Positions 10,901-25,283 of a DNA stretch of 64,000 nt are shown here, one piece after another. The position numbers and the translations under genes were made by a program. A model generated the notes under the pieces. That model ran no database searches, was not told where the DNA came from, and saw only the letters and a list, made by a program, of their open reading frames with translations. Position 1 is the first letter of the stretch. Each line of letters opens with the position of its first letter. The stretch comes from Candidatus Micrarchaeota archaeon (GTDB lineage Archaea > Micrarchaeota > Micrarchaeia > Anstonellales > Bilamarchaeaceae), in assembly GCA_040754495.1 (NCBI GenBank), contig JBFMCO010000022.1:18233-82232 (forward strand), given 5' to 3'.

Positions 10901-13900
10901 GGCGCGTACCAGAACGGGGAGGGGAAGTGGGTCCGCCAGGAGGCGCAGCGCGGGGACGGTCCTGAAGGCATGGCTGCCATTAGCAGGATGCCAGGGTTCG
11001 CGGACTCGGAGCTCGTGAAGCACGCCATAGCGCAGGACGGGGTGAAGCCCGGCGCGAAGCCCGAGGAGCTCACCTGGAACGACTTGGTTGAGCAGGCGGT
11101 GAAGATGGGCGAGCTTCCGGACAGGCCGGAAGTCAGGCAGAACGCGTTCGCGGTGCCTATGGTGATAAACGGGAAGCCCGAAATCGTGGTCAAGGTCATG
11201 TTCGGCAAGCCGCCGGCAGACGCGCTCGAGGTGCGCTCGGTCCTGCAATCAAGGGGAATTGGCGGGCAGGTAGCCGCGGATGCAATAAACCTTTACAAGA
11301 TTTTCAATGGCGAGCAGGTGCCGCTCGAAGTCGCATCAAGATACATGGACGTCACGCTGCATGACCAGTACACGCGCATAAAGCAGGAGAAGATTGCCTC
11401 TGGGATGCCAGAGACGAAAGCCGATGCCGAGGCCCTCGTGGAGGTAGCCAAAAGCATGGCGCCCCGCGCCGGAGAGGGCGGGTTGGAAGCGGGCGGCCCG
11501 ATATCTCAGGAGGGGGTGGAGCTCCTCAGGATGGCCGAGGGGAAGCTCGACCTCGTGGAGGGGCTGACCGGGGCGGATGTCGCGAAGGCGACACTGGACT
11601 GGAGCCAGCCCAGGCTGGAGATGCTCAGGATTCTTACTGTTGAGGGAAGCCCGTACCGGGAGCGGTTCCTCGCAGCGGACCCGGCCGAGCGCGCGGTCAT
11701 CGCGGACGCGATTGCAAGGGGCGCGACACCGGAGCGCGCGTTCCTCAAGGCGGCCGAGGGCATGGTGCCTGCGGATGGCCGAAAACTGCTTGAGGTGGGA
11801 GAGCGGCTGAAGGGGCTTCCCGAAGCAGAGAGGAATCTCAGGTTAAGAGACCTTGAATCGCTGAATCCGGCCCTCGGAAGGATGCTTAAGAGGCTGGCGG
11901 ACCCTGCGACTCCGGAAACTGTGAAACAGGAGATTGCGGCCGAATGGGATTCGGCTGTTGCGGGCGCAGAGAGGCATAAGCGGGTCAATGAGGCGAGAGC
12001 GGCGCGGGACGCTGCGCAGCTTGCTGAGCAGGAGCTCGCCCTGCTGAAAGGGACGCCGGACGAGCAGGCCGCAGGACGCGTGCCGGCATGGATAGAGTCG
12101 GCCGCGAAGGCAAGGGGAAAGGACCCCGCGGCGCTCCATGAGGCGCTCGTGAAGGCATACGGAGAAGGCGGAACCGAAGGCAGGCTCAGGGTGCTTAACG
12201 AGCTGGGCGCGCTCGGCGGGATGCCTGAGGGGGTGCGCTCCACCTTCGTGCAGAACAGCCCGGAGTTCTTCGAGCTCATAGTGCGGGGCGGCCTTGAAGG
12301 CCGCGTGGCGGCGATGCCTGGATTCGAGGGCGGGATCATAGTCAATGCGGAGAAGCTCGAGGGGCTTCGCGGGGCGTACAAAATCGACGTGGAGATGCCG
12401 GACGGGTCAAAGCGCTCGCTGTTCGTGAAGGCCGAAGACCTGGTGCCGGCGCAGCTTGGAAGCGAGCTTGCCGGGGGGCATGGGCTTCTTCCGCCCGTGA
12501 TACACGCGGCCGACGGACAGGGCATGCCCTTCACCTATGATACGGGGATAAGATACACGGACCCCGTCTCAGGGCAGGAGACGGCGCACATGCAGGAGTT
12601 CGGCATAATGGAGGACGTCCATGATTATGCGACAGCCAGGCACAGCGACGTCATCATGCTTCCGGACGGCAGGAGCGCGCAGGTTACCGTGGAGAGCGTG
12701 GCGGTCGTCTCCAGGGAGGTGTTCGCGGACCCGGCGAGGATGCAGGCGATACTAGCGGACGAGCATCATCCCGCGCACAAGGTTGTCAAGGCGTTCTGGG
12801 AGCTTGCAAAAACAGAGGAGGGAAGGCAAAGGATTTTCCAGGCATGGCGGGCCTATCACGAGCTCTCGAGGAGGGCCATGCTCCTCGACCGGTTCGACAG
12901 GAACACGGTGGCAGTGCTCGTCACCACCCCGGAGGGAGAAAGCGTCCTCACGTTCCAGCCCATCGACATGGACTATGTGGCGGGAAAGATAGGCTCGGAC
13001 GGCGACCTTCGGTTCTTCAATGACGACTTCGCGTCAGCGAGCGTGGATTTTGCTACGAAGATTGCGGGGGCTGCGGGGGTTCCCGCAGAGACCGTCCTGG
13101 GAGAGATGGCGAAGGCGTACGGCTCTGACAGTGTGTTCCCGCGCGAAGCCGCGGACGAGAGGGCGGCCGCAGCGGCCTCGGTGCGCGCCACGCTGAACAA
13201 ATACGACGGCAAGCCTTTCGGGGCCGGCTACGACGTCGAGGACTACGGCAAGACGATTGGAAAGGATTACGTCGAATACGGCGGCAGGGACAGGATAGTC
13301 GGCCGGAGGGACGGCCGCGCGATTCTGCACGCCGGCGACATCACCCCGCTCGGCGAGCGGATAGGCGGGGCCGAGGCTGAGGCCGATTTCAGCAGGTTCA
13401 ATCGGGAGAAGTTCGAGAGGATGGCAAAGCCGCTCGAAGAAGCGGCTCCGCCTCCGGCAGTGGAAGCGCAGCCGCCCGCCGGAGAGAAGACTCCGCCCGG
13501 AAAGCGCGGTGCCGGCAACGTAACGCCGCCGGCAAGGCCGGGTGCGATGCGGGGCGCGCCTGCAGGCGGGCCGAGAACCGTGCCGGGCAAACGGGGGGCC
13601 GGAGGCGGGGAGCCGGTTGCAGCGCCGGGCGGAAGGAGGAAGGTGGCAATCGGAGGCGGGGAGGTGGAGCTCGAGCCTGCGCCGGAAAGGGCTCCGGAGC
13701 TCGCCGCGATGAAGATAAGCGAGGACGAGCTTTCGCAGCTCGGCGTCTCATACCAGGGCCTTTATCAGGACGGCGCAGGGAGGAGGCTGAACGTATTCGA
13801 AACGGAGGCCGGGGGGGAGAGGAGGCTTGTCGCCATCCCGGCAGACCTCAGCGGGAAGGCGATGCTCGATGCAATCGGGGCCGAGGTGCGCGCCCTGGGA

Positions 13901-16900
13901 AGGCCGACGGAACTGCCGCCGGAGCTGCGCGGCATGCCGCCGGACGTTTCGTCCCAGGTCGGGATGGACGGGGCGCCAAAGGCAAGGCTGCTCTCGTCCG
14001 AGCCCCTGGGGCGCGGCTCGAGCGCGGACGTGTATCTTGCGGAAATGGTGATTGACGGAAGGCCGACCCGCGTCGCGGTGAAGATATACAAGAACCCGGA
14101 GGGAAACGGGACGTGGCAGGAGCGGGCAGAATATTTCGCGGACGAGGTGAGGAAAGCGAAGATCCTGGGCGATGCAGGCCTCGGCCCGAAGGTGTTCGGG
14201 ATTGCCGATGCGGGCGGGAACATGGCTTTCGCGATGGAGGTCATCGAAGGCAAGCCGATGTACATAGACGAGATGGCGCCCGGGCTCCGCGCGAAATACA
14301 TCAATGAGGACACGTTCGCGCAGGTCCGGAAAATGTATGACGAGCTGATAGCCCACGGATACGAAATCGGCGATTTCGATTTCATGATATTGACCGAAGG
14401 GCCGAATGCCGGCAGGGTTGTGTTCCTGGACGCCGGGGCGCTGCGGGAGGTGCCGCGCGGCGCCCAGGGCGAGCCACGGCCAAGGTACGGCGACGGCGCG
14501 AAGAGGGCGGAGGGCGGGAGGCTTCAGGCTGAGGCCATGACCGCCATGGAATATTTCACGAAGATGGACCGCGACGAGCTTGCCGCGGTAGCCGAGGTCT
14601 CGAAGGGCCTGCTCGGACAGGGCCATGTGGATTCGGACACCATGCGCCTGCTTGCGGTAAGATGGGGGAGCCGCGAGGGAAGGGCCAGGGCGATAGGAGA
14701 GTATATCACCAGTATCGCAGGGGCCGATGAGCAGAAGGCAAAGGCCACGTTCGACGCGCTGAAACGCATCGAGGCGGAAACCGGCATACGGCTGCTGCCG
14801 GATGGCGCGAGGTTCGAGGACCTTGCAGCCAGGGCGGGGGAGGGCGAGATATCGGAGGCGGAAATCATCGCGCCGATGTCAGGGGACGATTACCATGCCG
14901 CGCTCGCAGGGATGCGCACGCAGGCAGCACGCGAAAGCGTAGCGCTCCACTTCAGCGGAAGGGGCGAAATCCCGGACGCGGCCACCTTCGAAAATGCTGC
15001 CATACTGGCCGATGAGGCGGCAGGCGCGAAGGTGCCGGAGCAGGGCCAGGCCGAGCTGTCCGTATATTATGATGGGAACGGCAGGATAATCGGCATAGCG
15101 GATAACGAGCGGCTCTTCTACGGCGACCCCAAGGCGATAAATGACAAGACGCCGGAGGCGAAGGTCAGGGTGGACCTGGAGAGCGGCAGGATAGTCTCCA
15201 TGGACGAGCGCGGCATGAAGAACCCGCTCCTTGCGGACCTGGTAGGGCTGAGGATACTTCCGGGCAAGGGAGCGGAGGGCGCAGGGCCCGGCGGAAGGGG
15301 CCCGCCACCGTTGCCCCCGATGAAAGTGCTTGACGAAGGCAGCATAGTTTCGGCTTATGCAAGCGGGACAGGGCAGGCGCAGAGGACGAGGGCCGCCCGG
15401 TCGTTCGTGATGCTCGATGGCGAGGGGCAGGGGAGGGTGATATCGGAGCTGCGCTCCCAGGGCCGCCATGAAGAGGCCAGGCATCTTACCGAGCTGCAGG
15501 CGATAGGTGGGGAAGCCGGCGCAGGCATCGAAAGGGTTTACGGAATCCCGAGGGACGAGATTATCACGATATACGCGCGGGAGCCGACAGCCCAGGGCGC
15601 GAGGAAGGCGCTCGCGGAGAGGCTCGGCATCGTCATCCTGCCTTTCGAATGGGAGCATTATCCTGCGGACAGGAGGCAGTGGGTGTCCGTCCCGTACCGG
15701 GATTTCAGGTCTTTCGAGGACGACCACTTCCTCTTCGGGCTCATTACCTCAGGGAACATGATTGACACGGTCTCGCAGATGTATCCGGGAGGGAGGATAG
15801 CCTCCATAGAATACCATAACGGGGCGATAGGCGCTTACGAGGTCGCCATCAGGACGCAAAACGGGGAGACGCGCACCGTTTTCGTGAAGAGGCAGGATTT
15901 GCGCCCGGATGCGGCCGGCTCGGACTACTCGGTCCGCTCAGGCGTCCCGGCTCCTGAGGTCATCACCAGCGCCGGAGGCAGGGAGCTTACTTACGTCGGC
16001 CCGGACGGGGAGGTCTCGCGCTACGGCATTATAACCAACATGAGGGATTTCGGGGGGATGATGAGGTTCGGGGGAGTCGAGGCGCAGGTCAGGGCTACGG
16101 ACGAGACCGCGCTGTGGGACCTCGACAGGAGCCCCCTTGCCGGCTCGCTCATGTCTCAGGACCCGCAGGTGAGGGCGAAATTCTGGGAGGAGCTCGGCTA
16201 CATGCTGGCAGGCTCTTACGCGACCGGGATATGGGACAGGCATGCGGGAAACGCGCGCGCGATGGTCCTCGAGGTGCAGAACGCGGACGCGCACACGAAC
16301 CCCGCGGACCAATCATCACCGACAGTGGGCGAGGCGCTGTCGCAGAAGGGCTACTGGGTGTGGCAGCAGGACGGAAAGACGTACATGTTCATGATAGGCG
16401 GCATAGACACCGACACCGCGGCCAACTACCTTGCCGGCGAGGCGCACGGCAGCTTCGACATGACCGGCATGAACATAAGGTACGGCTATGTCGACCTCCA
16501 CAGCCTCTTTAACAGGCTAGCGACGATAAGAGGCACGAGCGTGGATGCGCTCGTCATGGAAGCCTTCGGCGATGTCAGCGGCGGTCAGGTGCCCGGCCCG
16601 GTCGCGATGGGCATGAAGAGGTGGTGGCGCGACTTCGGGAGCGACCCGCACTATGCCGATGAGATGGCCGGCCGGTTCTCCAGCCACGAAGGCGAGAGCA
16701 TAGGCTTCGGATACCCCAGGACCGAGCAGGAGCTGGACGTGATAAGGCAGGGGGGCGTGCTCCATCAGGAGAATCCGCAGAACGGCGACCCTTACACCAT
16801 CATCGCCTTCGCTGACGGCAGGTCTCGGATGAGGCCGGAATACGAGATAGTGCACCGTGAGGACATCGAAGCCCTCGACCCGCGCATAGCCGCGATGTTC

Positions 16901-19900
16901 CCTCCAGGGAGGGACATGTACGCCGTGGAGATAACCGGCGAGGTGCGGAAGGCCGTTCCGGACATAGACAAGAGGACGAACCGCATCCGGACCTCGGACG
17001 GCAGGATGGTCGCGATAATAGACTCGGCCGACCCGCTCGCGAAAACGCTGCTCGACGGGGGAATTCCTATGGTGAAGGCGAGGCGCGACATGCCCCGGCA
17101 GGGAGAAGTTGCCGTGGATGATGCGACCGGCATAATACGGGCCGCTCCAGGGTTCGGAAAGCTGACCGGAATCCAGGCCTACCAGGCCGGCCCGGTTCCG
17201 GTTTTCCGGGCGATGATGGGGGCAGGGGAGGGGTTCATGCTCGGGCAGTTCGCGCACATCGGCCATTATATATTGGCCAAGGAAACGAGCGTGAGGGAAG
17301 CCGCGCAGGTTCCTGCCGGAGTGGTGGCCGGGGAGATAGAAGCGCCGGGAATAGAGCGCATGCCCGCCCCGGCGCAGGTGGAAGGGGTAAGGGGCGGGAT
17401 GAGGGACCTGGTAGGGGCAGTCAGGTCCGGAGACGAGGGCAGGATAAGGGCCGCGGAAGCCGAGTACGATAAGAGGCTCGGAGTGCTGGCCAGGCTAAGG
17501 CCAGATACGGAACTGAGGGTCGTGGAAAACGAGACGCTGTTCGCGGACCTGGCTCCAGGGGGGCAGGCACAAGCGAAGGTGCTCGCGGCAGACTATCTCA
17601 GGAACAGGTCCGCAGGAAAGAAGCTTGACGGCGACCTGCTCGTCATCGACTACCTCGTATCGCATGGAATGAACGCGGTGGATGCGGCTGCGGCAGTCGT
17701 GAATCTGGGGGGCGCCGGGAAGGCGCCTGCCCCTGTGACGCTTCCGCCGTACGTTGCCGAGCACTTCGGGACCAGGCAGCCTGACCCGGTCACGGCTGAA
17801 AACGCGCTGATTCTTGCCGGGGACAGGAATACGCTCGGAAGATTGGGCATACCGGACGGCCTTGGCAGGGTCCTGAAAAGCGAGGGCATGGCTGTCGTGT
17901 CCGAAGGAAAGAGGATGACCGAGGTGAGAGGCTATTACGATCTGGAGAGCGGCAGGATAATATACCTCGGCAGGACGGACGCGCCAAGGGAGGTCACGGC
18001 GGGAGGAGTGGAGTTCGTCCTCCGTTTCGACCATGAGAGCGGGAGGGTATCCATTCCGGAAAGCGAGGACGTGCCGCTTCCGGATTCGATTGCCAGGCTG
18101 AACGGAATGCGCATTGCGCCCCCGCCCCAGGCAGTGCCGTTTGGCGTTTTCGGCATTTTCATGCCACTGTTCAAGTATTTCAGGAAGCCCCCGGCAGCCG
18201 CCCCGCAACCTGAGGCCGTGCCCATCAAGGTCCCGAGGTCCAGGAACGACATCCAGGGAAGGGCCGAGGGCATAAGGGGGCTGCCCCCGGACCAGCAGGC
18301 GCAGGAGCTTGCGGGGCTGCACGATGCCGTGGCCGCCGAGCATGGCGACGTTTATGCGAGGAATTACCGCGACATGATGGAGGAGCTGGTGAAGCATCCG
18401 GAGCATTCGGGCAGGATTCTCGACGAGTGGGAGGCGGTGAGGGCCGAGGAGAAGCATTACGAGGCGCTCGAGAGGGCGAGGAGGTATGCCTTCTCGGCCG
18501 CAGAGGGGTTCGGGATTGTCAGGGGGCAGGACAGGAAGCTCATATCAGGCGGAGAGTACGCGGCGGACATGGCACGCTCGAGGGGCGAGAAGCCCAAGGC
18601 ATTCCGGAAACGGCTCCTCGAAGCGTATGATGCCGGGTTCAGGAGAGGAGGCGTGCTCGATGCGAGGCTCGGCGTGGCAAATTCGCTGGGTGTGCTCGAC
18701 AATATAGTGGTAGAGTCGCGGCCGGGCGTCTTGGACGAAAAGAGGACGATGCAGGCGAGGAAGGAATTCATCAGGAAGAACCCGGAGTTCTTCGACCTAA
18801 TCATGAGGGGCGGACTCGAGGAGGTCATCTCCGCGAACCTCGGGGCCGGCGACGTGAGAATCGCAGGAGTCTCGCACGCGGGCGGCATGGCGCGGGGCGC
18901 GTACGGCGTGGAGGTCCTCCTTCCGGACGGCAGGAGGAAGCGCGTGTTCGTGAAGCTGGAGGACCTCGGGCCTGCCGCGTTCGGGGCTGATTTGGCCAGA
19001 GTCGAGGGCATGATTGCGCCGAAAGTCTTCACTGCGGATTCGCAGGGAAGGCCGCTCTCGTATGACGTGAGCTACAAGGACCCCATCGGAAAGAGGATGG
19101 TGAGCGGCCAGAGGCGCTTTGGCATCATGCTGGATGTCCGCGACACGGTAGGGCAGAAGGCCAGGGTGAGGACCGCGGACGGGAGGTTCAGGGAGATAAC
19201 GGTCACGAGCGTGGCGCTCGTTGGCGACGACATCTTCAATGCCAGGTCGCTTGACGGGATACCCCAGCCCTCCAGGGCCGCCGCGGAGGACTTCTGGACC
19301 GCAATGGGAAGCGAGGGCGGGCGCGAGGAGATGTTCAGGACGTGGTACGCGTACCAGGAGATGTCAAGGCGGGCCACCCTCAGCGACAGGCACACCGGGA
19401 ATTCGATGTACGTCATCGGCGTGACGTCGGATGGCGAGACCGTGAGGACGTTCCAGCCCATAGACCCGGACGATATCGGAGCCAAGGTCGAGGCCAGGCC
19501 GGAGGGCATGAACTTCAGCGAGTTCAACGATTTTTCCGCGCTCTACACGTCGAATTTCGTGAACGGCCTGTACCTCGCGTCGGATAACGCCGCGAGCCTC
19601 GGCCTGCTCAAATCCCCGATCAACCGCGCGCAAGCGAGCAGGGCAGCATCGAGCGACGCCGCGATGTCAGGGTGGAGGCTTCCGGAAGACCCCGGGTGGG
19701 TGAGGTCCGCGGCTGAGTTCATAATCATGGATTACGATGGCAAGCCGTTCGGCCTCGGAACGGACATGACGATAGGCGGGCACGGCTCGTACATAAAATA
19801 CCATGCCGGCAGGAGGAGGGCGGCAGGCTACGACGGCCGCGTCCGGATGTACTCGGACGAGATGCTGGCGGTTTATCGGGGAGCGCAGGACCCTGCCAAC

Positions 19901-22471
19901 GCGGCGGATGTCGCGCGCAGGGTGGATGAGCGGATGGGCTGGGAGAACGCCGGCCACATGAGGGCGCTTGAGCGGAGGTATCCGGACCTCGGCACCCTGC
20001 CTCCGCACATGCAGGAGTACAGGGAGCCCCTCGAGCGTGCGCGCAGGCGCATAGCGGGCGGCGAGAAGCCCGATGACGTTTACCTTGACGAGTCGAAGAG
20101 GATGCTGAGGGCTAATCCCCGGGAGAGGGCGAAGGCCGAGGACATAATCACGAGGCACGGGAGGGGCGTGGCAGACGCCGAGGTGTCCGCGGTCCTGGAG
20201 TTCCAGAAGAGAAACGGCATCGCGTCTTTCGAAGATGCGGCGTATGCATTCGTGAGACAGCAGGCCGCGCCGAAACCTCCAGCGGAACCGCTGCAGCCAT
20301 CCGAAGCCATTTACCGGAAGCATGAAGCGAATATTTTCGGCCCTGCCCGGGGGCAGCTTGGCAGCGAGCTCCTTGCCAGCCTGAGGGGCGCTGAGGAGAG
20401 GATAGCCGGCATGGTGCCTGAGGGGCCGGAGAGGGAGCGCGCGCTCAAAAGATGGGGCGAGTTTGCAGACCGGGCGCTCTCGCGCATCGCCGATCTCCCG
20501 GCACCCGAGCGCGCGGACGCGCTGGCGCGCTTCATGATAGCGGGCGACTATCTCCTCACAAGGGCGGCTGAGAACCCGGCGCGCACGAAGGCATGGCTCG
20601 ATTTCATCGCCGACAACCCGAACGCCGTCGAATACGCCATGCTCGCCAAACGAGGTCTCGACATAAGGGCGCAGGACATAGTCGTGGCCGAAATCCGCCC
20701 CAGCATCCATGACATGTCTGACAGGAAAGCGCTGAAGAAGGCCCTCGGGAAGAGGGTATCGTTCATGGAGGACGTGATACGCGAGATACCGGAAAGGTGG
20801 TTCATGGAGGCGGGGGTGAGGCGCGATTATATGATGGACCTTGCAGGTTCCGACCCGCTCAGGGCGGCGGCCGAGCTCGACCGCGTCACGATGCCGCACG
20901 GAATCAGTGTTGTGAGGAAGGCAACGGGCGTGTACCTCGCAGAGGTCTCGCACACGTTCTCGCTGCATGGCCAGCCGGACATCCGGGGCCTCGTAATAAC
21001 CGGCGCTTACGGGACGGGCGACATGTTCGACGGCATGACCGCGTATTTCAATCCCCTCAGCGGCAGGATTTTCATGCGCGGGACTGCCCATTTCGCGGAG
21101 GCCGGCATACCGGAATCCGCGCTTCCGGGCATGAAGATGACGTACGTGCATGAGATGCAGCACCTGCTCGACAACGCCGGCGGGTATGTCGCGGCACTCT
21201 CGGCCAGGTCTGCAGGGCGCGGAATGGCCTTCATGCCGGAATACCGCGCCAGGCTCGAGACCACGGCGGTCGCGAGAGAGGTCCTGGAGATGGTTCCCCG
21301 GCTGGGGGGCCGCGGGACCGAGGATGCCATCAACGCAGCCATCAGGAAGGACCCGGAGGAATACAAGCAGGCTTACAGGAAGGCGCTGGACGCCATGCGC
21401 ACAGGCGAGGACGGAAGGCCCGACCCGGACTGGGCGGGCAGGCCGCCCGAGGTTCTGCAGAACCGGCTGAGGAAGCTTATAGACGACGAATACCGGAGCC
21501 TTATGCCGCTGAGCTATACCGAGCTCTACGGGCCGACAACCGCAGGGATCGTCCGCGGGGAGATCACGGTCAGGAAGCCGGCCGCCCCCGAGGCCGTTCC
21601 CTTCAAGCCCGCCGTAGCCGCGGACTCGGCTCCGGGACGCGGGGAGCCGGACCTGCTGCGCTCTGCCAAGTATGAAAATGGAATCCTGACGATAGAGGCG
21701 GATTACCTGGGAGGCGAGCTTGCACATGCGGTGAAGCCGCAATTCGCCGAATCCGCGGTGAATGGCGAGTTCATCCCTTCCGGCGACAGGACAAAGCCGA
21801 GCGGCCTGTGGCTCTCGTGGGGCTCCGGCTGGGATTACTTCACAGGGAGCAACCCCGGCCTGATGTTCAAAGGCACCGTGAAGTTCAGGGCCGAGATGAG
21901 GTCCGGATTGAAGCTCTTCCTGCTTGACGGGCGCGAATCTTTCGATAGCATGATGGCCGAATTCCGGCGGGAAGTTAAGGTCGCCGAGACAACGGGGAGC
22001 GGGTATCCGGATGGCACCTGGCCTGATAACAACTGGGTGTACTACGAGAAGAGCCCATGGCAGTGGCTTAGGGAAAGGGGCTATGACGGCGTGGCCGTGA
22101 CGGAGGAGGGATATCTGGATACCAATTTCCAGTTCGGCTGGGACGCGGCCTCCATAGTCATTTTCGAGCCTGCGGGCAATGTGCGCCTGCCTGGAGGCGA
22201 AGCCAGGCTGGAGGAGTACAGGAAGGGTGCCCAGGGCAGCGCGGACGCCATGCTGCCCCTTATTGAAGAGGCAGGCCTGCCGTTATTCGGCCCGAATAAG
22301 GCGTATGACCTCATAGAGGCGTACGCCGGCGGCAGGGCTGAGCGCAGCCCGGGAAAGCGCATCGATGCCGAGGATGAGGCTTTCCTTAAAAAGCTCCTGG
22401 ACGAGAAACCGGGCCTTGAAGAGGCTGCGAAAAGGATTATCGAATACGTTAGAAAGAGGGAAGGGGGATAG
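1946..22471 (+). CDS. Giant multidomain protein (6,841 aa). N-terminal ~1,900 aa are Ala/Glu/Lys/Arg-rich and helical-looking. It also carries an internal hydrophobic helix cluster, three PI3K/PI4K-like kinase modules, one RIO/Bud32-like kinase module, a Pro/Gly-rich linker and a C-terminal HExxH segment
   Basis: A single uninterrupted 20,526-nt ORF, which cannot occur by chance even at 65% GC. Motifs were read directly from the translation (see the sub-features below). No N-terminal signal peptide. Confidence 0.85.
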   Translation: MGQKPAERQPEVRDEGVRVAQPQVPMVPREQPRGGANEAAANAATGLGVMGKFAAVLDFIIADPSRAEGRLAEFSRRLEPYRADYPEETRIALGLFGAASRMYREAQDARAHGDTQRAQELEDSARAHFREGMAKAGSVPGMAQDIHSLAGAGASPEWIESRKAAFNDVGLGTWNRAIAIDQAVEWRVKNDAIIDAGGPAAREAEARMRDEAVRLAEGSRQGQAFSEQDYQDTMRRFSEASAPVTALAAHIHGAAALFHQAAMRQGVSEQYTKAMEDLKKEFDKLLKKLEEGTATKEDVEKAKELADAVKAAETDLEGLSGDDAVTVSGIHARGLSALRQGKGEMARVQRQLAREYAKTKDPGMRKKLERWSADLAKGKAPEAELERWLEAQRPAEFRALTTENIKRETAERAGLLREKGYERSHPRETKRIAELDREAAKALEEAKALRKRGDLDGAGKLEAKAFRLLREARAKVLWLERLDRFQARLAGIKEPPEMKKAAEEVSKALGGAFNFIGTQDGWRARLAFIAADVFIRYGKVLQSKPAAPLLKGILSIVGILSDPRKKVDEKRAQEEVGRLEPKALSAELGGLKGKVDDKAHSKLTDAVKAASGFIGTNQQWRAAYLLRGVKFFLDNREKIGTRGKLFEGIMGFLGRLADPKGEIGEEEAKREFARITGIPAEAPAQAGGRREAALTVAGLKQAGEGFEKRLRAIPGHEEQVRSITETVKLAGEEFRAGNVKKAQELLALAEKKAAALEGVVEREKRIDASGAPEEAREKLKKAGLAAFNDLGKQSGGRFDTVVKATDLFLGGMERKLWLQPGGETAALKLLDFIGRLGEGALQGLEFDSQAAESELSDISAQAGELWKAMLGASITEWLRLIEGWRTMGGLGTANAKFLDDLAESYRALQKRLEEGAKAEDIEQEASALEARAEHAKKIGEELEERERAVAVFRGDVEDFKADTAAFRASERFKKYAADAEPYVKKAEEWEEKAATFMAEAEKLEGDAKAEMIKRAADAVKRSEELLGHAGKIIGLREAGASDEVVSAYRKAANSYIAVFEPAPPGLAGEAQIFPDDVLAYAAIVFSAADSYLFFRKHGRAEAEKRAERLVLGTTFASRIADAEAELRGLDGEMEYAEAIDSDTAARKQKLMDSATELRGDKRKVPKPREGSAEWYGQMALDALERGDFAVADLAVYRGMFEKVAPGGGRNYVPEDIERDISAVLRGEKVPAAGELDRYLTLIDSASLTAQADLLKRDNPVSGSAEERERKQRVHKLAEEIKRRADAHDFAGAERLLEMATVYTGLARDKKWKAFAGADRMEAALDAELAGGDHSGEFQAAVVYQKASEETASFRASLADWGAGLAENKKLVERGLLRVEQLVSEGKTEEAGALFGQLMLYAGAVRTFAAPKKRDVIPGFDPAYDSSKLGGMGLALDALIKGEAEVGGKKPEEVFSQSFLETQREYLNKRADAYLRLSEKMPVGAETVGQGLAEVRRRAAEGDFEGALRLLEMAGNYYGEAAPGKQAGWRYRDATRKGPGYERGRQDMLNAISMEIAAKDPADHDEALETFNSGSQRISVAKAAIERYEIVERNIYNALPTAVIDEWDHHGTIALRGEPTPENEEGPVLGRVSMEKIRRYESEHPDDTALGGGLSLKTLLTKMKKAAEEGDDEAFRKYEKAFFSRLYLVAGRILRREQLEENRQEVKKYIEVLEGFTAAITIDQLVPYGWLEGDDERLKKVTALEKQLKNNEISKAEFESKLNVILSERLQMIEQNKFTDKVPGPMRETVRQLAPRAKALLERARGLYGKLEKMDNNSSEFPLEEYKQVVKDLSALTEEYQTQRKISVAYSHIDQQLQMNKSYHEAIAGEGALASDYPDAYGRAVKFLGFSNGHFKKAQELLLKGEFKQAGAEFERGINRREWALMEADPNVLFGQANTYLGNLPISMLTGVPIIPESTTAMDEVSMIKHRPGWGVLKLAARGRGEDPYKYTYGWAKQQMENDQDVNLGNPARPDYVKDPQQSWAYYNYSPITEYGADFMGYEELGGRLWNSVLEGDGRKVQRYQKQMLVMEASVFYIPVDTFIDGINSKITYKDWQKRIHFQAMYNGDLAYDELFGDWGLMDARTGAKIAEGVGMFALSIATMGLGSVGFVVGGGKMLWDAIDGIQKDLAKYGEVTTMSWVNLGLTVVGLGASAAAGRLVKASQTAIEAAKLGDAAKFTTQVARAGRFATAARVVAYTDITVNVIGMVPQFYYGIKLMAEGKYAEGTQQLAFGAFSAFMAYHGGVQQLRGMRGLKTEIAKMGALREAHAKAPEVFASLSTPEGMFSFLQRVRARDPVSLVIYDNLPKPQRILFDGMLADRNVVSALKKNDIGLARGAFDSGLETFKQLSDLGGTRALTDAAHLGTQAGLEPFMRDLLIPESATGPQRTRRDAAYARLGEMKKRPETAEAAATIETLLKDKDVQKGNETGVLKIGWAADEIRSQQMQTINRYTDSVVSGEQARLGLYSSEGEAARANAKRIGDSYLAYARARSEGKPFDWDYHAKRMGMGPEDAKKLFAKLDAVPDARTVAGVISREGVRQAVRNRVALDGRAILGDTPLTELAGEGALFSRWGELTPEDLFGMALNRRERAAEELEGAGRETDGRLAAAKRERATALSREADALDAEVKRRQAPEEVLTPDSLRSGAKEKFGRAQRLRSEGRDEEAFALESEARRSIALAADLEKFGEYGIVRATPDGQFIHRDFPDRRFTRAELDDAAILVRAIRKRGVPTDKRLLAIYDALPKEVKKDYRGGEDALMKSVLDVIYSRRGQAAEAAAPVLRSEELPVPSDPALAAVAGMTVPGTNLRWGVIPPDQVLQWQAKVYEAYKAAYGKIGLIYDSPEAMFAKNPEVLVATDGEGRIVAFTILKKTAFGTKLSLVGAVPDIPEGRAAARAMIQGFPALEGAYITAPGAPAHLAIKAGVPVVPYDSARIIQGEVPAEAGSPGAYQNGEGKWVRQEAQRGDGPEGMAAISRMPGFADSELVKHAIAQDGVKPGAKPEELTWNDLVEQAVKMGELPDRPEVRQNAFAVPMVINGKPEIVVKVMFGKPPADALEVRSVLQSRGIGGQVAADAINLYKIFNGEQVPLEVASRYMDVTLHDQYTRIKQEKIASGMPETKADAEALVEVAKSMAPRAGEGGLEAGGPISQEGVELLRMAEGKLDLVEGLTGADVAKATLDWSQPRLEMLRILTVEGSPYRERFLAADPAERAVIADAIARGATPERAFLKAAEGMVPADGRKLLEVGERLKGLPEAERNLRLRDLESLNPALGRMLKRLADPATPETVKQEIAAEWDSAVAGAERHKRVNEARAARDAAQLAEQELALLKGTPDEQAAGRVPAWIESAAKARGKDPAALHEALVKAYGEGGTEGRLRVLNELGALGGMPEGVRSTFVQNSPEFFELIVRGGLEGRVAAMPGFEGGIIVNAEKLEGLRGAYKIDVEMPDGSKRSLFVKAEDLVPAQLGSELAGGHGLLPPVIHAADGQGMPFTYDTGIRYTDPVSGQETAHMQEFGIMEDVHDYATARHSDVIMLPDGRSAQVTVESVAVVSREVFADPARMQAILADEHHPAHKVVKAFWELAKTEEGRQRIFQAWRAYHELSRRAMLLDRFDRNTVAVLVTTPEGESVLTFQPIDMDYVAGKIGSDGDLRFFNDDFASASVDFATKIAGAAGVPAETVLGEMAKAYGSDSVFPREAADERAAAAASVRATLNKYDGKPFGAGYDVEDYGKTIGKDYVEYGGRDRIVGRRDGRAILHAGDITPLGERIGGAEAEADFSRFNREKFERMAKPLEEAAPPPAVEAQPPAGEKTPPGKRGAGNVTPPARPGAMRGAPAGGPRTVPGKRGAGGGEPVAAPGGRRKVAIGGGEVELEPAPERAPELAAMKISEDELSQLGVSYQGLYQDGAGRRLNVFETEAGGERRLVAIPADLSGKAMLDAIGAEVRALGRPTELPPELRGMPPDVSSQVGMDGAPKARLLSSEPLGRGSSADVYLAEMVIDGRPTRVAVKIYKNPEGNGTWQERAEYFADEVRKAKILGDAGLGPKVFGIADAGGNMAFAMEVIEGKPMYIDEMAPGLRAKYINEDTFAQVRKMYDELIAHGYEIGDFDFMILTEGPNAGRVVFLDAGALREVPRGAQGEPRPRYGDGAKRAEGGRLQAEAMTAMEYFTKMDRDELAAVAEVSKGLLGQGHVDSDTMRLLAVRWGSREGRARAIGEYITSIAGADEQKAKATFDALKRIEAETGIRLLPDGARFEDLAARAGEGEISEAEIIAPMSGDDYHAALAGMRTQAARESVALHFSGRGEIPDAATFENAAILADEAAGAKVPEQGQAELSVYYDGNGRIIGIADNERLFYGDPKAINDKTPEAKVRVDLESGRIVSMDERGMKNPLLADLVGLRILPGKGAEGAGPGGRGPPPLPPMKVLDEGSIVSAYASGTGQAQRTRAARSFVMLDGEGQGRVISELRSQGRHEEARHLTELQAIGGEAGAGIERVYGIPRDEIITIYAREPTAQGARKALAERLGIVILPFEWEHYPADRRQWVSVPYRDFRSFEDDHFLFGLITSGNMIDTVSQMYPGGRIASIEYHNGAIGAYEVAIRTQNGETRTVFVKRQDLRPDAAGSDYSVRSGVPAPEVITSAGGRELTYVGPDGEVSRYGIITNMRDFGGMMRFGGVEAQVRATDETALWDLDRSPLAGSLMSQDPQVRAKFWEELGYMLAGSYATGIWDRHAGNARAMVLEVQNADAHTNPADQSSPTVGEALSQKGYWVWQQDGKTYMFMIGGIDTDTAANYLAGEAHGSFDMTGMNIRYGYVDLHSLFNRLATIRGTSVDALVMEAFGDVSGGQVPGPVAMGMKRWWRDFGSDPHYADEMAGRFSSHEGESIGFGYPRTEQELDVIRQGGVLHQENPQNGDPYTIIAFADGRSRMRPEYEIVHREDIEALDPRIAAMFPPGRDMYAVEITGEVRKAVPDIDKRTNRIRTSDGRMVAIIDSADPLAKTLLDGGIPMVKARRDMPRQGEVAVDDATGIIRAAPGFGKLTGIQAYQAGPVPVFRAMMGAGEGFMLGQFAHIGHYILAKETSVREAAQVPAGVVAGEIEAPGIERMPAPAQVEGVRGGMRDLVGAVRSGDEGRIRAAEAEYDKRLGVLARLRPDTELRVVENETLFADLAPGGQAQAKVLAADYLRNRSAGKKLDGDLLVIDYLVSHGMNAVDAAAAVVNLGGAGKAPAPVTLPPYVAEHFGTRQPDPVTAENALILAGDRNTLGRLGIPDGLGRVLKSEGMAVVSEGKRMTEVRGYYDLESGRIIYLGRTDAPREVTAGGVEFVLRFDHESGRVSIPESEDVPLPDSIARLNGMRIAPPPQAVPFGVFGIFMPLFKYFRKPPAAAPQPEAVPIKVPRSRNDIQGRAEGIRGLPPDQQAQELAGLHDAVAAEHGDVYARNYRDMMEELVKHPEHSGRILDEWEAVRAEEKHYEALERARRYAFSAAEGFGIVRGQDRKLISGGEYAADMARSRGEKPKAFRKRLLEAYDAGFRRGGVLDARLGVANSLGVLDNIVVESRPGVLDEKRTMQARKEFIRKNPEFFDLIMRGGLEEVISANLGAGDVRIAGVSHAGGMARGAYGVEVLLPDGRRKRVFVKLEDLGPAAFGADLARVEGMIAPKVFTADSQGRPLSYDVSYKDPIGKRMVSGQRRFGIMLDVRDTVGQKARVRTADGRFREITVTSVALVGDDIFNARSLDGIPQPSRAAAEDFWTAMGSEGGREEMFRTWYAYQEMSRRATLSDRHTGNSMYVIGVTSDGETVRTFQPIDPDDIGAKVEARPEGMNFSEFNDFSALYTSNFVNGLYLASDNAASLGLLKSPINRAQASRAASSDAAMSGWRLPEDPGWVRSAAEFIIMDYDGKPFGLGTDMTIGGHGSYIKYHAGRRRAAGYDGRVRMYSDEMLAVYRGAQDPANAADVARRVDERMGWENAGHMRALERRYPDLGTLPPHMQEYREPLERARRRIAGGEKPDDVYLDESKRMLRANPRERAKAEDIITRHGRGVADAEVSAVLEFQKRNGIASFEDAAYAFVRQQAAPKPPAEPLQPSEAIYRKHEANIFGPARGQLGSELLASLRGAEERIAGMVPEGPERERALKRWGEFADRALSRIADLPAPERADALARFMIAGDYLLTRAAENPARTKAWLDFIADNPNAVEYAMLAKRGLDIRAQDIVVAEIRPSIHDMSDRKALKKALGKRVSFMEDVIREIPERWFMEAGVRRDYMMDLAGSDPLRAAAELDRVTMPHGISVVRKATGVYLAEVSHTFSLHGQPDIRGLVITGAYGTGDMFDGMTAYFNPLSGRIFMRGTAHFAEAGIPESALPGMKMTYVHEMQHLLDNAGGYVAALSARSAGRGMAFMPEYRARLETTAVAREVLEMVPRLGGRGTEDAINAAIRKDPEEYKQAYRKALDAMRTGEDGRPDPDWAGRPPEVLQNRLRKLIDDEYRSLMPLSYTELYGPTTAGIVRGEITVRKPAAPEAVPFKPAVAADSAPGRGEPDLLRSAKYENGILTIEADYLGGELAHAVKPQFAESAVNGEFIPSGDRTKPSGLWLSWGSGWDYFTGSNPGLMFKGTVKFRAEMRSGLKLFLLDGRESFDSMMAEFRREVKVAETTGSGYPDGTWPDNNWVYYEKSPWQWLRERGYDGVAVTEEGYLDTNFQFGWDAASIVIFEPAGNVRLPGGEARLEEYRKGAQGSADAMLPLIEEAGLPLFGPNKAYDLIEAYAGGRAERSPGKRIDAEDEAFLKKLLDEKPGLEEAAKRIIEYVRKREGG
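8320..8800 (+). other. Cluster of 2-4 predicted transmembrane or amphipathic helices inside the giant ORF (about aa 2126-2286)
   Basis: Hydrophobic, Gly-rich stretches: VGMFALSIATMGLGSVGFVVGGG, TTMSWVNLGLTVVGLGASAAAG, VVAYTDITVNVIGMVPQFYYGI and LAFGAFSAFMAYHGGV. Confidence 0.5.
12260..13080 (+). other. PI3K/PI4K-like module A (about aa 3439-3712); probably degenerate because the catalytic loop reads DRFDRN instead of DRHxxN
   Basis: Has SLFVKAEDL (compare IFKxGDDLRQD), LDRFDRNTVAVLV and FQPIDMDY. Shares the ~270-aa architecture of modules B and C, beginning PEFFELIVRGGLE. Confidence 0.55.
13440..13640 (+). other. Pro/Gly/Arg-rich low-complexity linker with repeated PGKRGAG units (about aa 3832-3899)
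   Basis: PPPAVEAQPPAGEKTPPGKRGAGNVTPPARPGAMRGAPAGGPRTVPGKRGAGGGEPVAAPGGRRK. Confidence 0.6.
13990..14450 (+). other. RIO/Bud32-like (ePK-fold) kinase module (about aa 4016-4169)
   Basis: Glycine-loop-like LGRGSSADVYLA, VAIK-like RVAVKIYK, catalytic-loop-like YEIGDFDFMIL and DFG-like VVFLDAG. Confidence 0.6.
15805..16520 (+). other. PI3K/PI4K-like module C (about aa 4621-4859) with an intact catalytic loop
   Basis: TVFVKRQDLRPD, GIWDRHAGNARAMVLEV and FMIGGIDTDTAANY. Confidence 0.65.
18781..19590 (+). other. PI3K/PI4K-like module B (about aa 5613-5882) with an intact catalytic loop
   Basis: NPEFFDLIMRGGLEE, RVFVKLEDLGP, LSDRHTGNSMYVIGV and FQPIDPDD. Collinear with modules A and C. Confidence 0.65.
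21060..21330 (+). other. HExxH-containing segment near the giant-ORF C-terminus (about aa 6403); a possible metallopeptidase-like module
   Basis: MTYVHEMQHLLDNAGGY. The same HExxH-x-LD pattern occurs in ORF 577..1545. Confidence 0.4.
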
Positions 22472-22489: not shown

Positions 22490-23032
22490 TCAGGGCACGG
22501 CCTGCCCGTTTATCACGAAGCTGAATTTCTGCCTCTCCTTCTCAAGCGCCTTCACGGTTTCCAGAGAGTCCTTCAGCATGCGCAGGAAAGGCTCCCAGGA
22601 GCCGCTGCCGGAATGGATGCTGCGGATGGCCTCGGAAACGACGACCTTCCTTTTCTTGTCCACGAAAGTGCAGTAGATGCTGCTTCCCCGGCGCCTGACA
22701 TCGATGCCGTATTCCGCGAAATCCTCCTCCGGCGGAAGTGTGGCGCCGAGCGCGAGCGCGGATGCGACGGATTCTATCCCCTTCCTCGGCTCGGACGAAT
22801 AGGACTGGACGCCGACGCCGTCCTTGAGATAAAGGCTGTCCGGAATCCTGAGGAGCGGCTCCAGCTCCCGGGGCATCCCGCCGGCGATTTCCGCGAGGGT
22901 GTCCATGAGGCGCTCTTTAGTTGCGCGGTCCCGCAGGAGCGGATCTGCCAGCATCTTCTGGAACCTTTTTTCGCCTATGTCCGTTACGGTTGCTCCGGCC
23001 GTTTTCTTTTTTCTCTTTCCTGCCATCGTCAC
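22490..23032 (-). CDS. Small hypothetical protein (180 aa); member of a three-paralog set with 24133..24663 and 23029..23577
   Basis: Basic N-terminus (MTMAGKRKKKTAG). The C-terminal half aligns with 24133..24663 (YGIDVRRRGSSIYCTFVDKKRKVVV..GSWEPFL versus YGIHISSRGDNTFCTLVDRKRGVVV..GSWTGFL). Its start overlaps the upstream stop by 4 nt. Confidence 0.6.
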   Translation of the reverse strand: MTMAGKRKKKTAGATVTDIGEKRFQKMLADPLLRDRATKERLMDTLAEIAGGMPRELEPLLRIPDSLYLKDGVGVQSYSSEPRKGIESVASALALGATLPPEEDFAEYGIDVRRRGSSIYCTFVDKKRKVVVSEAIRSIHSGSGSWEPFLRMLKDSLETVKALEKERQKFSFVINGQAVP

Positions 23033-23577
23033 ACCAGGTACATGTCGCCGCAGTCGCTGACCGCTACTCTCCCCGGCTTCGCCTTCGCGGCTGCCTCGGC
23101 GGCCCTTATCGCGCCAGCGACTTCCGCCCAGTCCTTTTTTTGCGGCTTGTCCATATAGCGCATGAGCGGCTCCCTCACCATTATCCTCCGGCCCATGTCC
23201 GCGAGCACGAGATAGACTGTGCTTGTCGTCTCATAGACGGCGATGCCGTATCCCATGTCGGGCTTCCGGTCCATATGGCCGGATGAAAGGAAACGCGCCA
23301 GGACAGCGTTTATCCCGAACCCGGCGTCATCCGAAAGCGTGATTGCATTACCGGCCTCGCGCCGGTAAAGGCGCGCGGGGAGCGCAAGCGCCGCCTTGAC
23401 ATCCTCGCTCCAGTTCTGCGCGTATCCTGCAAGGCCCGAAGCGGCGTCCTCCCGCGACACGGAGGCAGGTGGCGCAGCTTCTGCAAGATGGCCTTCAGTG
23501 GCGCCGGCCTTCGCGATGAACGGCTTTTCCGGCGGAGGCAGGGGCACTGGACCGCGGGCATCCCTTTTCTTTGGCAT
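23029..23577 (-). CDS. Small hypothetical protein (182 aa); a more distant paralog in the same set
   Basis: Basic N-terminus (MPKKRDARG). Shares LPARLYR and YGIAVYETTSTVYLVLAD motifs with its neighbours. Confidence 0.5.
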   Translation of the reverse strand: MPKKRDARGPVPLPPPEKPFIAKAGATEGHLAEAAPPASVSREDAASGLAGYAQNWSEDVKAALALPARLYRREAGNAITLSDDAGFGINAVLARFLSSGHMDRKPDMGYGIAVYETTSTVYLVLADMGRRIMVREPLMRYMDKPQKKDWAEVAGAIRAAEAAAKAKPGRVAVSDCGDMYLV

Positions 23578-23609
23578 GAGTAAAACTTGCGATGAACCGT
23601 TTAAAATGG

Positions 23610-24107
23610 CTAGGTCGCCTCGATGAGCCGCCAGTAGGTGTTGTTGTCGAGGATGTTCCTCGCCTTCGCGAGGTCGGCCGGGGGAATCTGCGCCCCCGTA
23701 TCCAGCGCCTTCTTCACCGAGCGCAGGAATGCGAGGTCGGCCCGGGCGGCGGTTATGCAGCCCTGGACGATGCGTTCTATCTTGCCCTTGGCTTCCTCCC
23801 GCGACGCCTCCCCGCTTTCCAAGGATACCTCGATTTTTGACGGGTCTGCCAGGCTCCTGAAAACCACGCCGGAGCCGCCAAGCTCGTCTTTCTTCCCTCC
23901 GGCCATGCCCCGGACGAAGCTCTCGACGCCCCTCCGGAGGACGCCTGCCCCGTTCTCCAGGTCCCGCTCGAGGTATTCGATTTTGCCATCAATCCCGCGG
24001 GCAAGGCCGGCCATCTCCAGGCCCTCGCCTTTTTCCGGGGCGGCGCCTCTTGACGGGAATTTTCCTGAATCGCGCTTTTTCGGGAAGGGAATCACCTTTC
24101 TCTCCAT
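23610..24107 (-). CDS. Small hypothetical protein (165 aa) in the same operon
   Basis: Co-directional and tightly spaced with its neighbours. Basic N-terminus (PFPKKRDSGKFP). Confidence 0.45.
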   Translation of the reverse strand: MERKVIPFPKKRDSGKFPSRGAAPEKGEGLEMAGLARGIDGKIEYLERDLENGAGVLRRGVESFVRGMAGGKKDELGGSGVVFRSLADPSKIEVSLESGEASREEAKGKIERIVQGCITAARADLAFLRSVKKALDTGAQIPPADLAKARNILDNNTYWRLIEAT

Positions 24108-24132
24108 GGGGGGTTATTGGCGAATCGGGATT

Positions 24133-24663
24133 TTAAATTGAGCTAACCGAGCCTTCTTTCACAATCACGAACTCGAAGCGCCTGCCGCTGCGCCTGTAGG
24201 ACTCGGCGAGCCTGAGCGCCTGGGAGAGGCTGTCCAGGAATCCGGTCCAGGAACCGGTGCTGACGTACATGTTCTTTATGTCGTCGAACACGACTACGCC
24301 CCGCTTCCGGTCCACCAGCGTGCAGAAGGTGTTGTCGCCCCGCGAGCTGATGTGTATGCCATAATCCGGAAGGCCGGGCGGGAACCCTGAGCCCAGCATG
24401 AGCGCCCCTGCGGCTTTCGCCGCGCCTTTCTCGGCATCAGATGAGAAGGACGATTCGCCGGTGCGGTAAAGCCTGGCAGGGATTCCAAGAAGGTGGGCCT
24501 GCTCGTCGCTCATCGGGACGATTCTCCGCAGCTGTCCGATGCACTCTTCCCGCGTTACTGAATTGGCGTCGGTCATATTGCGCCTCCTCCTCCACTCCGC
24601 AAGGTCCGTCATCCCCGACTCGCGCTCCGGCGCGCCGGAGGAGCGGCCCTTCCCGCCAAGCAT
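24133..24663 (-). CDS. Small hypothetical protein (176 aa); paralog of 22490..23032
   Basis: See the alignment quoted for 22490..23032. It also shares the IPARLYR motif. Confidence 0.6.
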   Translation of the reverse strand: MLGGKGRSSGAPERESGMTDLAEWRRRRNMTDANSVTREECIGQLRRIVPMSDEQAHLLGIPARLYRTGESSFSSDAEKGAAKAAGALMLGSGFPPGLPDYGIHISSRGDNTFCTLVDRKRGVVVFDDIKNMYVSTGSWTGFLDSLSQALRLAESYRRSGRRFEFVIVKEGSVSSI

Positions 24664-24703
24664 GCCATCTAACTCTTGCGAAGATATTTTAATGGGGCAC
24701 GGA

Positions 24704-25228
24704 CTAGCGGCCCGTCCTGATTCTGTCCGCGAAGCGCTCCATGGAGCAGGATGGGTTCCCGGGGTCGCGGACCGCCATCTCCAGCTCCTTGAGCCGCAAT
24801 CCGTCGGGATGGGCGCGGTCTATGAAGCGCGCGATAATTTTTCCGCCCTCTTCATGGAGCGAGAGATACCAGTATTTCACCCACTGCGAGATGTCGCCGA
24901 GAGTCTCGCCTTCCATGCGCGGCCTCTGCCTCGACGACTTGGTGTCGCAGAGCTCGAGGCCGCCCTCGAAGCGGGAGAGCCGGACCTTCGGCGGGAACGC
25001 GAGCGCCACGTAGATGTCGAAGCCCGGCTCTGCGCCGAGCGTCCTGCAAAGCTCGGCGATGGCTTGCCGGGCCTCCACGGTCTTCCGCATGGGTATCGGC
25101 CAGCCGGGGCTCGCCTTCCCGGCACGGTCGCCTTCCGGTTTCATGGCATCCAGCTCCCGCCTGGGGGGCCGGCCTGGCTTTTCCGGCGTGTCCGTTTCGC
25201 GGGGCGGGCCGGTGATCCTTTTGACCAT
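24704..25228 (-). CDS. Small hypothetical protein (174 aa); first gene of the convergent five-gene operon
   Basis: ORF with mixed composition. An AT-rich promoter-like spacer lies upstream (higher coordinates). Confidence 0.45.
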   Translation of the reverse strand: MVKRITGPPRETDTPEKPGRPPRRELDAMKPEGDRAGKASPGWPIPMRKTVEARQAIAELCRTLGAEPGFDIYVALAFPPKVRLSRFEGGLELCDTKSSRQRPRMEGETLGDISQWVKYWYLSLHEEGGKIIARFIDRAHPDGLRLKELEMAVRDPGNPSCSMERFADRIRTGR

Positions 25229-25283
25229 AGGATATTACTTATGGTTATCAACATTTTTAAACAGAATTAATGACATATTGTGC
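25229..25283. promoter_or_regulatory. Divergent AT-rich intergenic spacer with a TATA-like TTTTTAAA about 26-33 nt before the ATG at 25284. This spacing suggests a leaderless transcript
   Basis: ttatggttatcaacaTTTTTAAAcagaattaatgacatattgtgcATGATG. Confidence 0.3.

Follow-up and report, generated by a model that had tools for sequence, protein, structure and literature searches.

Five minus-strand genes converging on a giant open reading frame

The subject of this analysis is a cluster of five small genes at positions 22490-25228 of a 64-kb stretch of DNA from Candidatus Micrarchaeota archaeon (that is, the window, taken at its full length), together with the open reading frame (ORF) of 6,841 amino acids (aa) on the opposite strand towards which these genes run. 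Numbered g1 to g5 from the giant-ORF side outward (Table 1), the five include three members (g1, g2 and g4) of a previously undescribed protein family, here termed B, and we suggest that B proteins may act as partners of the giant protein. As the original prediction held, the five are co-directional minus-strand genes that converge on the 3′ end of the giant ORF, the coordinates leaving 18 nucleotides (nt) between the stop codon of g1 and that of the giant ORF. The gaps of 0-40 nt described in that prediction agree with spacers of 40, 25 and 32 nt among g5, g4, g3 and g2, whereas the 4-nt overlap that it also described depends on a GTG start for g1; the ATG at 23026 (MAGKRKKK), which agrees with the N-termini of the closest relatives of g1, leaves a 2-nt gap after the g2 stop codon.

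A contig from another assembly (L001), 95-98% identical to the window, has all five genes in identical order. Because the ratio of non-synonymous to synonymous substitution rates (dN/dS) between the two is 0.11-0.57 across all five genes, with only 11-25 substitutions counted per gene, we regard g1 to g5 as coding and apparently under purifying selection. In L001 (8103-8190) the first 31 codons of g3 are put out of frame by an indel, through a mistake in assembly or a frameshift of recent date; these codons are in frame in the more distant contig L002. The G+C content of the five-gene region is the same as that of its flanks, and the five proteins have isoelectric points of ~9-9.4.

Between -33 and -21 relative to their ATG, g5, g4, g3 and g2 carry AT-only boxes of 8-10 nt, in DNA of 61% G+C in which AT runs of at least 7 nt occur only 137 times over the whole window, and the same layout is found upstream of the homologous genes in L001, L003, L005, L010 and L011; g1 is the only gene of the five that lacks a TATA-like box. 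In archaea, a TATA box centred ~26-27 nt before the start codon implies that the transcript has no leader. Since g5, g4, g3 and g2 each have a TATA-like box of their own, the cluster most likely consists of four separate transcription units rather than the single five-gene operon first proposed, the last unit being bicistronic (g2-g1), and g1 is probably coupled translationally to g2 (2-nt gap, no box of its own). At the level of predicted boxes, that is, the cluster contains the internal promoters that a single-promoter operon would lack.

Table 1. Positions of the features discussed, in coordinates of the window
Feature	Position	Strand	Remarks
g1	22490..23026	-	B family, g4 type; 178 aa from ATG 23026 (180 aa with GTG 23032, ORF 22490-23032); family HMM E 1e-52; 34% identical to g4
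g2	23029..23577	-	B family, g2 type; 182 aa; family HMM E 8e-40; 100% identical to P0153 and to NCBI AB1529_02200 ('hypothetical protein', Candidatus Micrarchaeota archaeon)
g3	23610..24107	-	165 aa; separate small protein family, unrelated to B; N-terminal tag MERKVIPFPKKRD
g4	24133..24663	-	B family, g4 type; 176 aa; structure modelled
g5	24704..25228	-	174 aa; 100% identical to NCBI AB1529_02215 ('hypothetical protein'); probable remote B relative
TATA-like AT box of g5	25253..25261	-	~27 nt upstream of ATG, in the short spacer common with the divergent FGE-sulfatase-like gene
TATA-like AT box of g4	24684..24693	-	-30 to -21 from ATG; kept in L001
TATA-like AT box of g3	24130..24139	-	-32 to -23 from ATG; overlaps the g4 stop codon
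TATA-like AT box of g2	23600..23607	-	-31 to -23 from ATG
Giant ORF	1946..22471	+	6,841 aa; homologous to large ORFs beside B genes elsewhere
Hydrophobic block of giant	8324..8815	+	aa 2127-2290; 2-4 candidate membrane helices by hydropathy scan; kept in the minimal L015 protein
M1 module	11933..13369	+	aa 3330-3808; M1 type
M2 module	15347..16864	+	aa 4468-4973; M2 type; sole M type of the minimal large proteins found in L014 and L015
M3 module	18416..19891	+	aa 5491-5982; second copy of M1 type
FGE-sulfatase-like gene	25014-26207	+	likely true start near 25284; lipoprotein-like N-terminus (…LAGSLMGGC)
394-aa ORF	27209-28393	-	no family match; conserved in L001; HEVAH (HExxH-like) motif
DNA polymerase D large subunit (DP2)	31778-36658	-	interrupted by an intein with a LAGLIDADG homing-endonuclease domain
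tRNA match	42984-43041	-	Rfam match just above threshold (30 bits, model positions 10-63); not called by ARAGORN

The B family and its genomic linkage

Among the five proteins, g1 and g4 are clear paralogs (34-35% identity over ~170 residues; BLASTP E 1e-24 to 1e-27) and g2 is a more distant one (pairwise BLASTP E ~1e-5) that is recovered firmly by a hidden Markov model (HMM) of the family, so that the expectation of at least three paralogs is borne out. The treatment of the five genes as one set holds only in part, as g3 is of a different family: the family HMM detected neither g3 nor g5, and membership of g3 was rejected (hhalign probability 0.2%). In hhalign, g5 aligns colinearly with the B profile (probability 65%, E 6e-5), and its AlphaFold2 model, built from four sequences and of low confidence (pLDDT 53), has an order of secondary-structure elements that matches the first two thirds of the B fold; we thus regard g5 as probably a distant B relative.

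Searched exhaustively with an HMMER profile, 1.84 billion representatives yielded 235 clusters (50% identity) at E ≤ 1e-3, and 177 at E ≤ 1e-10, with members nearly all of 140-230 aa and, wherever the source names an organism, from Micrarchaeota or Micrarchaeia. A word-indexed protein search recovered few members (only two close homologs), and a scan of metagenome contigs only two short contigs. Near-invariant positions of the family (g4 numbering) are L45, P62 (IPxxLY), S74 (SFSS), D118 and R121 (VDxxR), V125 and W139, and the two motifs that had been picked out originally in the window, (I/L)PARLYR and YGI...CT(L/F)VD(K/R)KR...GSW..F, prove to be the conserved core of the 235-cluster family.

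The five proteins had been described as having no recognisable function, and curated-family searches agree: Pfam, NCBIfam, PADLOC and PHROGs returned nothing for g1 to g5 except a marginal, partial match of g1 to phrog_26379 (of unknown function; E 0.0011). Among 71 B members searched against Pfam, no family was matched by more than one member and the single matches were at chance level; membership in SUKH (1 of the 71 members, SUKH_5, E 0.03, chance level) and in SuFu (Foldseek match to its N-terminal domain, E 1.5, TM score 0.23) was rejected. PDB sequences searched with the B profile gave nothing below E 0.69. The g4 model has a confident predicted fold, mixed alpha/beta in topology, with no detectable relative among the solved PDB and predicted viral BFVD structures searched, and no DNA-binding domain was found in B either by Pfam (helix-turn-helix (HTH), ribbon-helix-helix or AbrB) or, as regards an HTH, in the model. 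Full-text literature searches returned no description of the B family or of giant proteins of Micrarchaeota. Because no family, fold or known system matches B on the defining features that were tested, we place the B system outside the known kinds and read its function from genomic context.

This context was taken from two GTDB genomes (L003 and L004) and from ten exact-sequence look-ups, with members spread across the family, and gave 12 loci with usable flanks: the window, L003, L004, L005, L008/L009, L010, L011, L012, L013, L014, L015 and the P0009 contig. In 12 of the 12, the B genes lie on the strand opposite a very large ORF, homologous to the window giant, and converge on its 3′ end at a distance of 0 to ~3 kb. 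These large ORFs measure 7,286 aa in L005, 6,158 in L008/L009, 5,879 and 6,069 in L010, 7,279 in L011, 2,865 in L014 and 2,259 in L015; lower bounds are available for the P0009 contig (>5,635 aa), L012 (>3,704) and L013 (>822, at a contig end), and the ORFs of L003 and L004 are partial. No B gene away from a large ORF was seen in the 12 contexts examined. The original prediction had tied the paralogs to the giant ORF, and neither paralogs lacking such a neighbour nor a break in linkage, either of which would speak against that tie, was encountered at these 12 loci.

Four loci (L004, L008, L011 and L012) share one chromosomal neighbourhood (Rpo11-like, Ham1, S15, S3Ae, NAC and RTC genes), which points to vertical inheritance rather than to a mobile island, while in the window, L013, L014 and L015 all other neighbours differ and the B genes and the large ORF are still adjacent. 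Across the loci, G+C ranges from 38 to 63%, and B proteins are 30-45% identical; the last ~300 aa of the large ORFs show no match between loci while B is conserved. Small, lineage-specific, unannotated genes in paralogous arrays could also be imagined as the cargo of a mobile element or virus, or as a defence island, inserted beside the giant gene. We consider this most improbable, and a mobile-element origin is essentially excluded: beyond the marginal phrog_26379 match there is no PHROG or PADLOC match, a pattern scan of IMG/VR found no B relatives, no integrase or repeats were noticed, the G+C content does not depart from that of the flanks and the chromosomal position is conserved across the phylum.

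Several of these loci carry further genes of note. In L003 (1-6175 and 10776-17732) and L010 (1-7564 and 10980-20531), two same-strand giant ORFs flank the small-gene cluster; the upstream-lying giant is preceded by a conserved gene of ~105-117 aa (L003 6182-6493, L010 7574-7927) and has, in its visible part, none of the M modules described below. In L004, the stretch separating the B gene from the adjacent giant ORF contains a gene for a 337-aa protein (7922-8935, minus strand; motif ELPW(I/V)KQI(V/I)IR…YRRRLFL) that is paralogous to the C-terminal domain of that giant, stands alone and resembles an orphan module. An ankyrin-repeat protein and a conserved gene of ~130 aa separate the B genes from the 7,280-aa giant in L005 (1606-2328) and L011 (11244-12038). 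In L013, a DUF87/TraG-like P-loop ATPase (HerA/VirB4-like; 2624-4207, minus strand) and a 1,003-aa ORF are found ~6 kb from a gene for an A-B fusion (see below); this is the only secretion-type ATPase seen near any locus.

M modules and a possible pairing with B proteins

The N-terminal ~2,000 aa of the giant protein are charged and alanine-rich, and a hydropathy scan found no N-terminal signal-like segment. Neither half of the protein has a Pfam match, and phmmer found no match among PDB sequences. Self-comparison revealed a repeated module of ~500 aa, here termed M, in three copies in the C-terminal part, M1 and M3 forming the closest pair and M2 standing further from both. By HMM, one to three copies of M are present in almost every large ORF beside B genes, and these sort into two types, both ancient, one M1-like and one M2-like. 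When aligned, 11 diverse M cores have invariant G30, K49, G59, D202, N207, I227, D228 and D230 and near-invariant G27 and R203, with the local motifs GxxGAY, VFVKxEDLxPA, DRHxxN and IDxD. Matched by eye, these residues are in our view similar in order and spacing to the signature known from protein-kinase-like enzymes (Gly-loop / Lys / D-x4-N / Asp), with the DRHxxN loop presumably recalling PI3/PI4-kinases and HipA: a Gly-rich loop, a Lys, D-x4-N and a putative metal-binding Asp follow one another in all 11 copies (G30, K49, D202, N207 and D228). M might represent a hitherto unrecognized branch of kinase-like enzymes. Should the number of helices in the hydrophobic block be even, the M modules would be cytoplasmic, which would suit both an ATP-using enzyme and B proteins that lack a signal. 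Elsewhere in the giant protein, a second repeat relates aa 4332-4439 to aa 5270-5392, an HEMQH motif occurs at aa 6402, and a short segment at ~aa 4060-4250 looks by eye like a small Rio/Kdo-type kinase.

B proteins likewise fall into two types, g4-like (including g1) and g2-like, and at six loci, three with the large ORF read completely and three with it read nearly so, their numbers match those of the M modules type for type. In the window, where the large ORF is complete, two M1-type modules and one M2-type module stand beside two g4-type B genes and one g2-type B gene. The complete large ORFs of L014 and L015 have no M1-type module and one M2-type module each, and each locus has no g4-type B gene and one g2-type B gene. 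L008/L009, L010 and L011, read over the C-terminal ~2,700-3,200 aa (that is, the region where all M copies lie in the window giant), have one module of each type and one B gene of each type, the g2-type call in L011 being ambiguous because the second B gene there scores 69.7 bits against g2 and 57.4 against g1. The remaining loci (L003, L004, L005, L012 and L013) are outside this count as too incomplete or as fused variants. Duplication has also run in parallel, M1 resembling M3 as g1 resembles g4, with M2 and g2 the outlying ones. This parallel and the match of types are what an arrangement of one subunit per module predicts.

In our view a functional link between the small genes and the large one is likely. 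An alternative account would have the adjacency be inherited synteny, with B doing something else (for example, binding nucleic acids through its basic tails, or acting in RNA metabolism). Four loci do place the pair in a conserved housekeeping neighbourhood beside RTC, NAC and ribosomal protein genes, the B genes have their own promoters and the opposite orientation, and the window proteins are basic both overall and in their tails. We nevertheless think this account unlikely, given that the pair stays together in the window, L013, L014 and L015 amid entirely different neighbours, that B and M covary in count and type, that the 12 contexts examined had B genes only next to large ORFs, and that no nucleic-acid-binding domain was detected in B, the globular part of which is slightly acidic on average.

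The type match bears equally on the possibility that B proteins are immunity or antitoxin-like inhibitors, the M modules being enzymes toxic to a host archaeon and each B protein neutralizing its cognate module in the producer, which would be a special case of the reading that we favour, one with a set direction of effect. Arrays of small paralogs adjoining the 3′ end of a giant multi-domain protein, a partner copy number that is specific to type and M invariants that look like a kinase site would all fit, as would the host dependence of DPANN archaea and the view that their giant proteins act on hosts (PMC10266531). In classical systems, however, the immunity gene comes after the toxin gene and on its strand, and B genes lie opposite the large gene, with predicted promoters of their own; B proteins retain 30-45% identity between genomes whose G+C spans 38-63%, although the large proteins have different C-terminal tips; and the fusions of B to a TIM-barrel enzyme or a helical domain would be unexpected for an inhibitor. 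Because of this strand arrangement, the phylum-wide conservation despite differing tips and the fusions, classical toxin immunity is disfavoured, and we regard the inhibitor version as improbable.

The N-terminal parts of the proteins bring in a further consideration. Lys/Arg-rich N-termini had been noted in the window from the start, and all five proteins indeed carry a net charge of +3 to +5 in their first 30 residues; the B family averages +3.5 in its N-terminal part versus -1.1 for the rest of the protein, and no hydrophobic N-terminus was found among B proteins. A hydrophobic motif, [VIL][VIL]x[FLI], occurs within the first 35 residues of 35 of the 119 family representatives (4.2 ± 1.9 after shuffling), that is, in ~30% of members (for example, KVIDLAERRR and KVIPFPKR, at residues 6-18), with g2-type N-termini differing. 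The same kind of tag heads neighbouring proteins, namely g3 (MERKVIPFP), g5-type proteins (MAGKVIKFP) and helical proteins that we call A-type (GKVLEF or NVILFPKR). Orthologs of g5 (164 aa, N-terminus MAGKVIKFPAHK) are encoded directly upstream of the B genes in L008/L009, and a g3 homolog (11028-11537; phmmer E 9e-12) adjoins the A-B fusion gene in L013; g3 and g5 have no match to the A-type proteins of L003 and L010, where the latter are stand-alone genes. In fusions, the B domain is always the C-terminal part, whether joined to an A-type helical domain (P0104, P0130 and P0162), in which case the tag is at the extreme N-terminus, or to an AP_endonuc_2 TIM barrel (P0031, L004 and L012); in P0004 the B domain is duplicated in tandem. 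The presence of one kind of tag on g3, g5-type, A-type and many B proteins points to the tail as a recognition element common to them and to the B domain as the docking part.

Such a tail could instead be a signal, with B, g3, g5-type and A-type proteins being cargo or effectors passed on to a host, or exported to it, by the giant membrane protein. The excess of the motif over shuffled sequences, its place on unrelated neighbours and at the very front of A-B fusions, and the DUF87/TraG-like ATPase near the L013 locus are in line with this idea. To our knowledge there is no experimental evidence for such an export route in Micrarchaeota, and neither the window nor 10 of the 11 other loci with context have a secretion ATPase or channel component; moreover, the motif is confined to a minority of members, the g2-type N-terminus is different and a type-for-type match to M is not something that cargo would predict. 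We therefore assign export a low probability.

Our preferred reading is that B proteins are partners of the very large, membrane-anchored protein encoded convergently beside them. The globular C-terminal domain of B would dock onto one copy of M, the proposed pairs being g4-type B with M1-type M and g2-type B with M2-type M, and the variable N-terminal part would stay exposed, whether it consists of a short basic tail bearing a hydrophobic motif, of an additional helical domain or of a TIM-barrel enzyme. Given the kinase-like pattern of M, B proteins might regulate M or load something onto it, as keeper or inhibitor subunits or as adaptors. We lean tentatively, at a little short of even odds, towards seeing every B protein as a dedicated partner in the cytoplasm that docks on a single M module of matching type; physical binding, one-to-one pairing, a cytoplasmic location of M, kinase chemistry and the direction of effect are elements that we infer from sequence and gene context. 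Among the roles of inhibitor (that is, immunity-like), adaptor and substrate we make no choice. The original prediction of a cognate-partner, immunity or adaptor set is accordingly upheld as regards a tie to the giant ORF (linkage at 12 of 12 loci, match of types), and finds no support as regards classical immunity (opposite strand, phylum-wide conservation despite differing tips).

Several points weigh against this reading. The count match comes from six loci, three of which were read only over the C-terminal ~2,700-3,200 aa, and L003 (two g2-type genes), L004 and L012 (TIM-barrel-fused B) and L005, all partially seen, give no clean counts; a third B-like ORF, degenerate, is present in L010. 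Since both sets of genes descend vertically, common phylogeny rather than pairing could account for part of the covariation, and convergent genes with promoters of their own do not imply co-regulation with the large gene. Pfam and PDB searches (with phmmer and with two M-module profiles) gave no match, and for this reason the kinase-like reading of M is based on the invariant residues. Finally, g3 and the A-type proteins are further components of the neighbourhood that a B-M model leaves unexplained.

DPANN archaea are tiny, host-dependent cells, most of whose lineage-specific genes have no known role; their giant genes have repeatedly been proposed as host-interaction machines, the workings of which are almost wholly obscure. 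An unannotated protein of 6,841 aa is now linked to unannotated small proteins in a concrete subunit-module hypothesis (g4 or g1 with M1 or M3, and g2 with M2), and the pairing, if real, would open the largest proteins of an entire archaeal phylum to experiment. Extended to its full scope, the proposal would be of a phylum-wide, vertically inherited apparatus in which a membrane-anchored protein of 2,000-7,000 residues carries one to three kinase-like modules, each with its own B subunit of new fold whose tail or fused domain recruits substrates or restrains the enzyme. We see this extended version as possible, albeit on balance doubtful; if true, such a combination of modular megaprotein and subunits would be a system of a new kind and might be central to action on hosts or to self-control.

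Neighbouring features and comparison with known systems

Beyond g5, the FGE-sulfatase-like gene is divergent from g5 across an AT-rich spacer of ~55 nt that probably holds both promoters; in L001 a run of N lies inside this gene. Further out are the 394-aa ORF, the intein-bearing DP2 gene and a tRNA match that may be a truncated, split or intron-containing archaeal tRNA (Table 1).

Among known arrangements, polymorphic toxin-immunity systems (CdiA-CdiI, Rhs, SUKH and SuFu) resemble the B-M locus in having a giant multi-domain protein, arrays of small paralogous cognates at its 3′ end and type-specific pairing. Their immunity genes, however, lie downstream on the toxin strand and match a variable C-terminal toxin tip, whereas B genes are convergent (on the opposite strand in 12 of 12 loci), individually promoted and conserved across the phylum, and track internal M modules rather than a variable C-terminal domain.

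In HipA-HipB and HipBST, a kinase with a catalytic loop of the D-x-H-x-x-N type is controlled by a small dedicated partner. M differs in having no profile match to HipA or any kinase and in being embedded in a protein of >2,000-7,000 aa, and B differs in having no HTH; the operon arrangement is also missing.

Closer in lineage are the giants of Nanohaloarchaeota (SPEARE, SVXNc_0300), membrane-anchored proteins of 6,000-9,000 aa with a Sec signal, Ig-like repeats and a VirB4/TraG-like ATPase, whose neighbouring accessory genes, downstream on the same strand, are thought to be part of a host-interaction apparatus (PMC10266531). In both cases DPANN archaea combine giant proteins with neighbouring accessory genes; by Pfam, the Micrarchaeota giant lacks all of these SPEARE features; in their place it carries M modules, and the family that accompanies it is not related.

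MbtH-like proteins are small stand-alone proteins encoded beside multi-modular non-ribosomal peptide synthetase megaproteins, where they attach one to each copy of a single kind of repeated catalytic module and act as dedicated chaperone or activator subunits. B shares no sequence or fold similarity with them and has no Pfam match; it is 2-3 times larger, with a basic N-terminal tail, it is archaeal and M modules are not adenylation domains. In working logic, and with binding by B putative, MbtH-like proteins are the closest analogy to the correspondence in number between B proteins and M modules.

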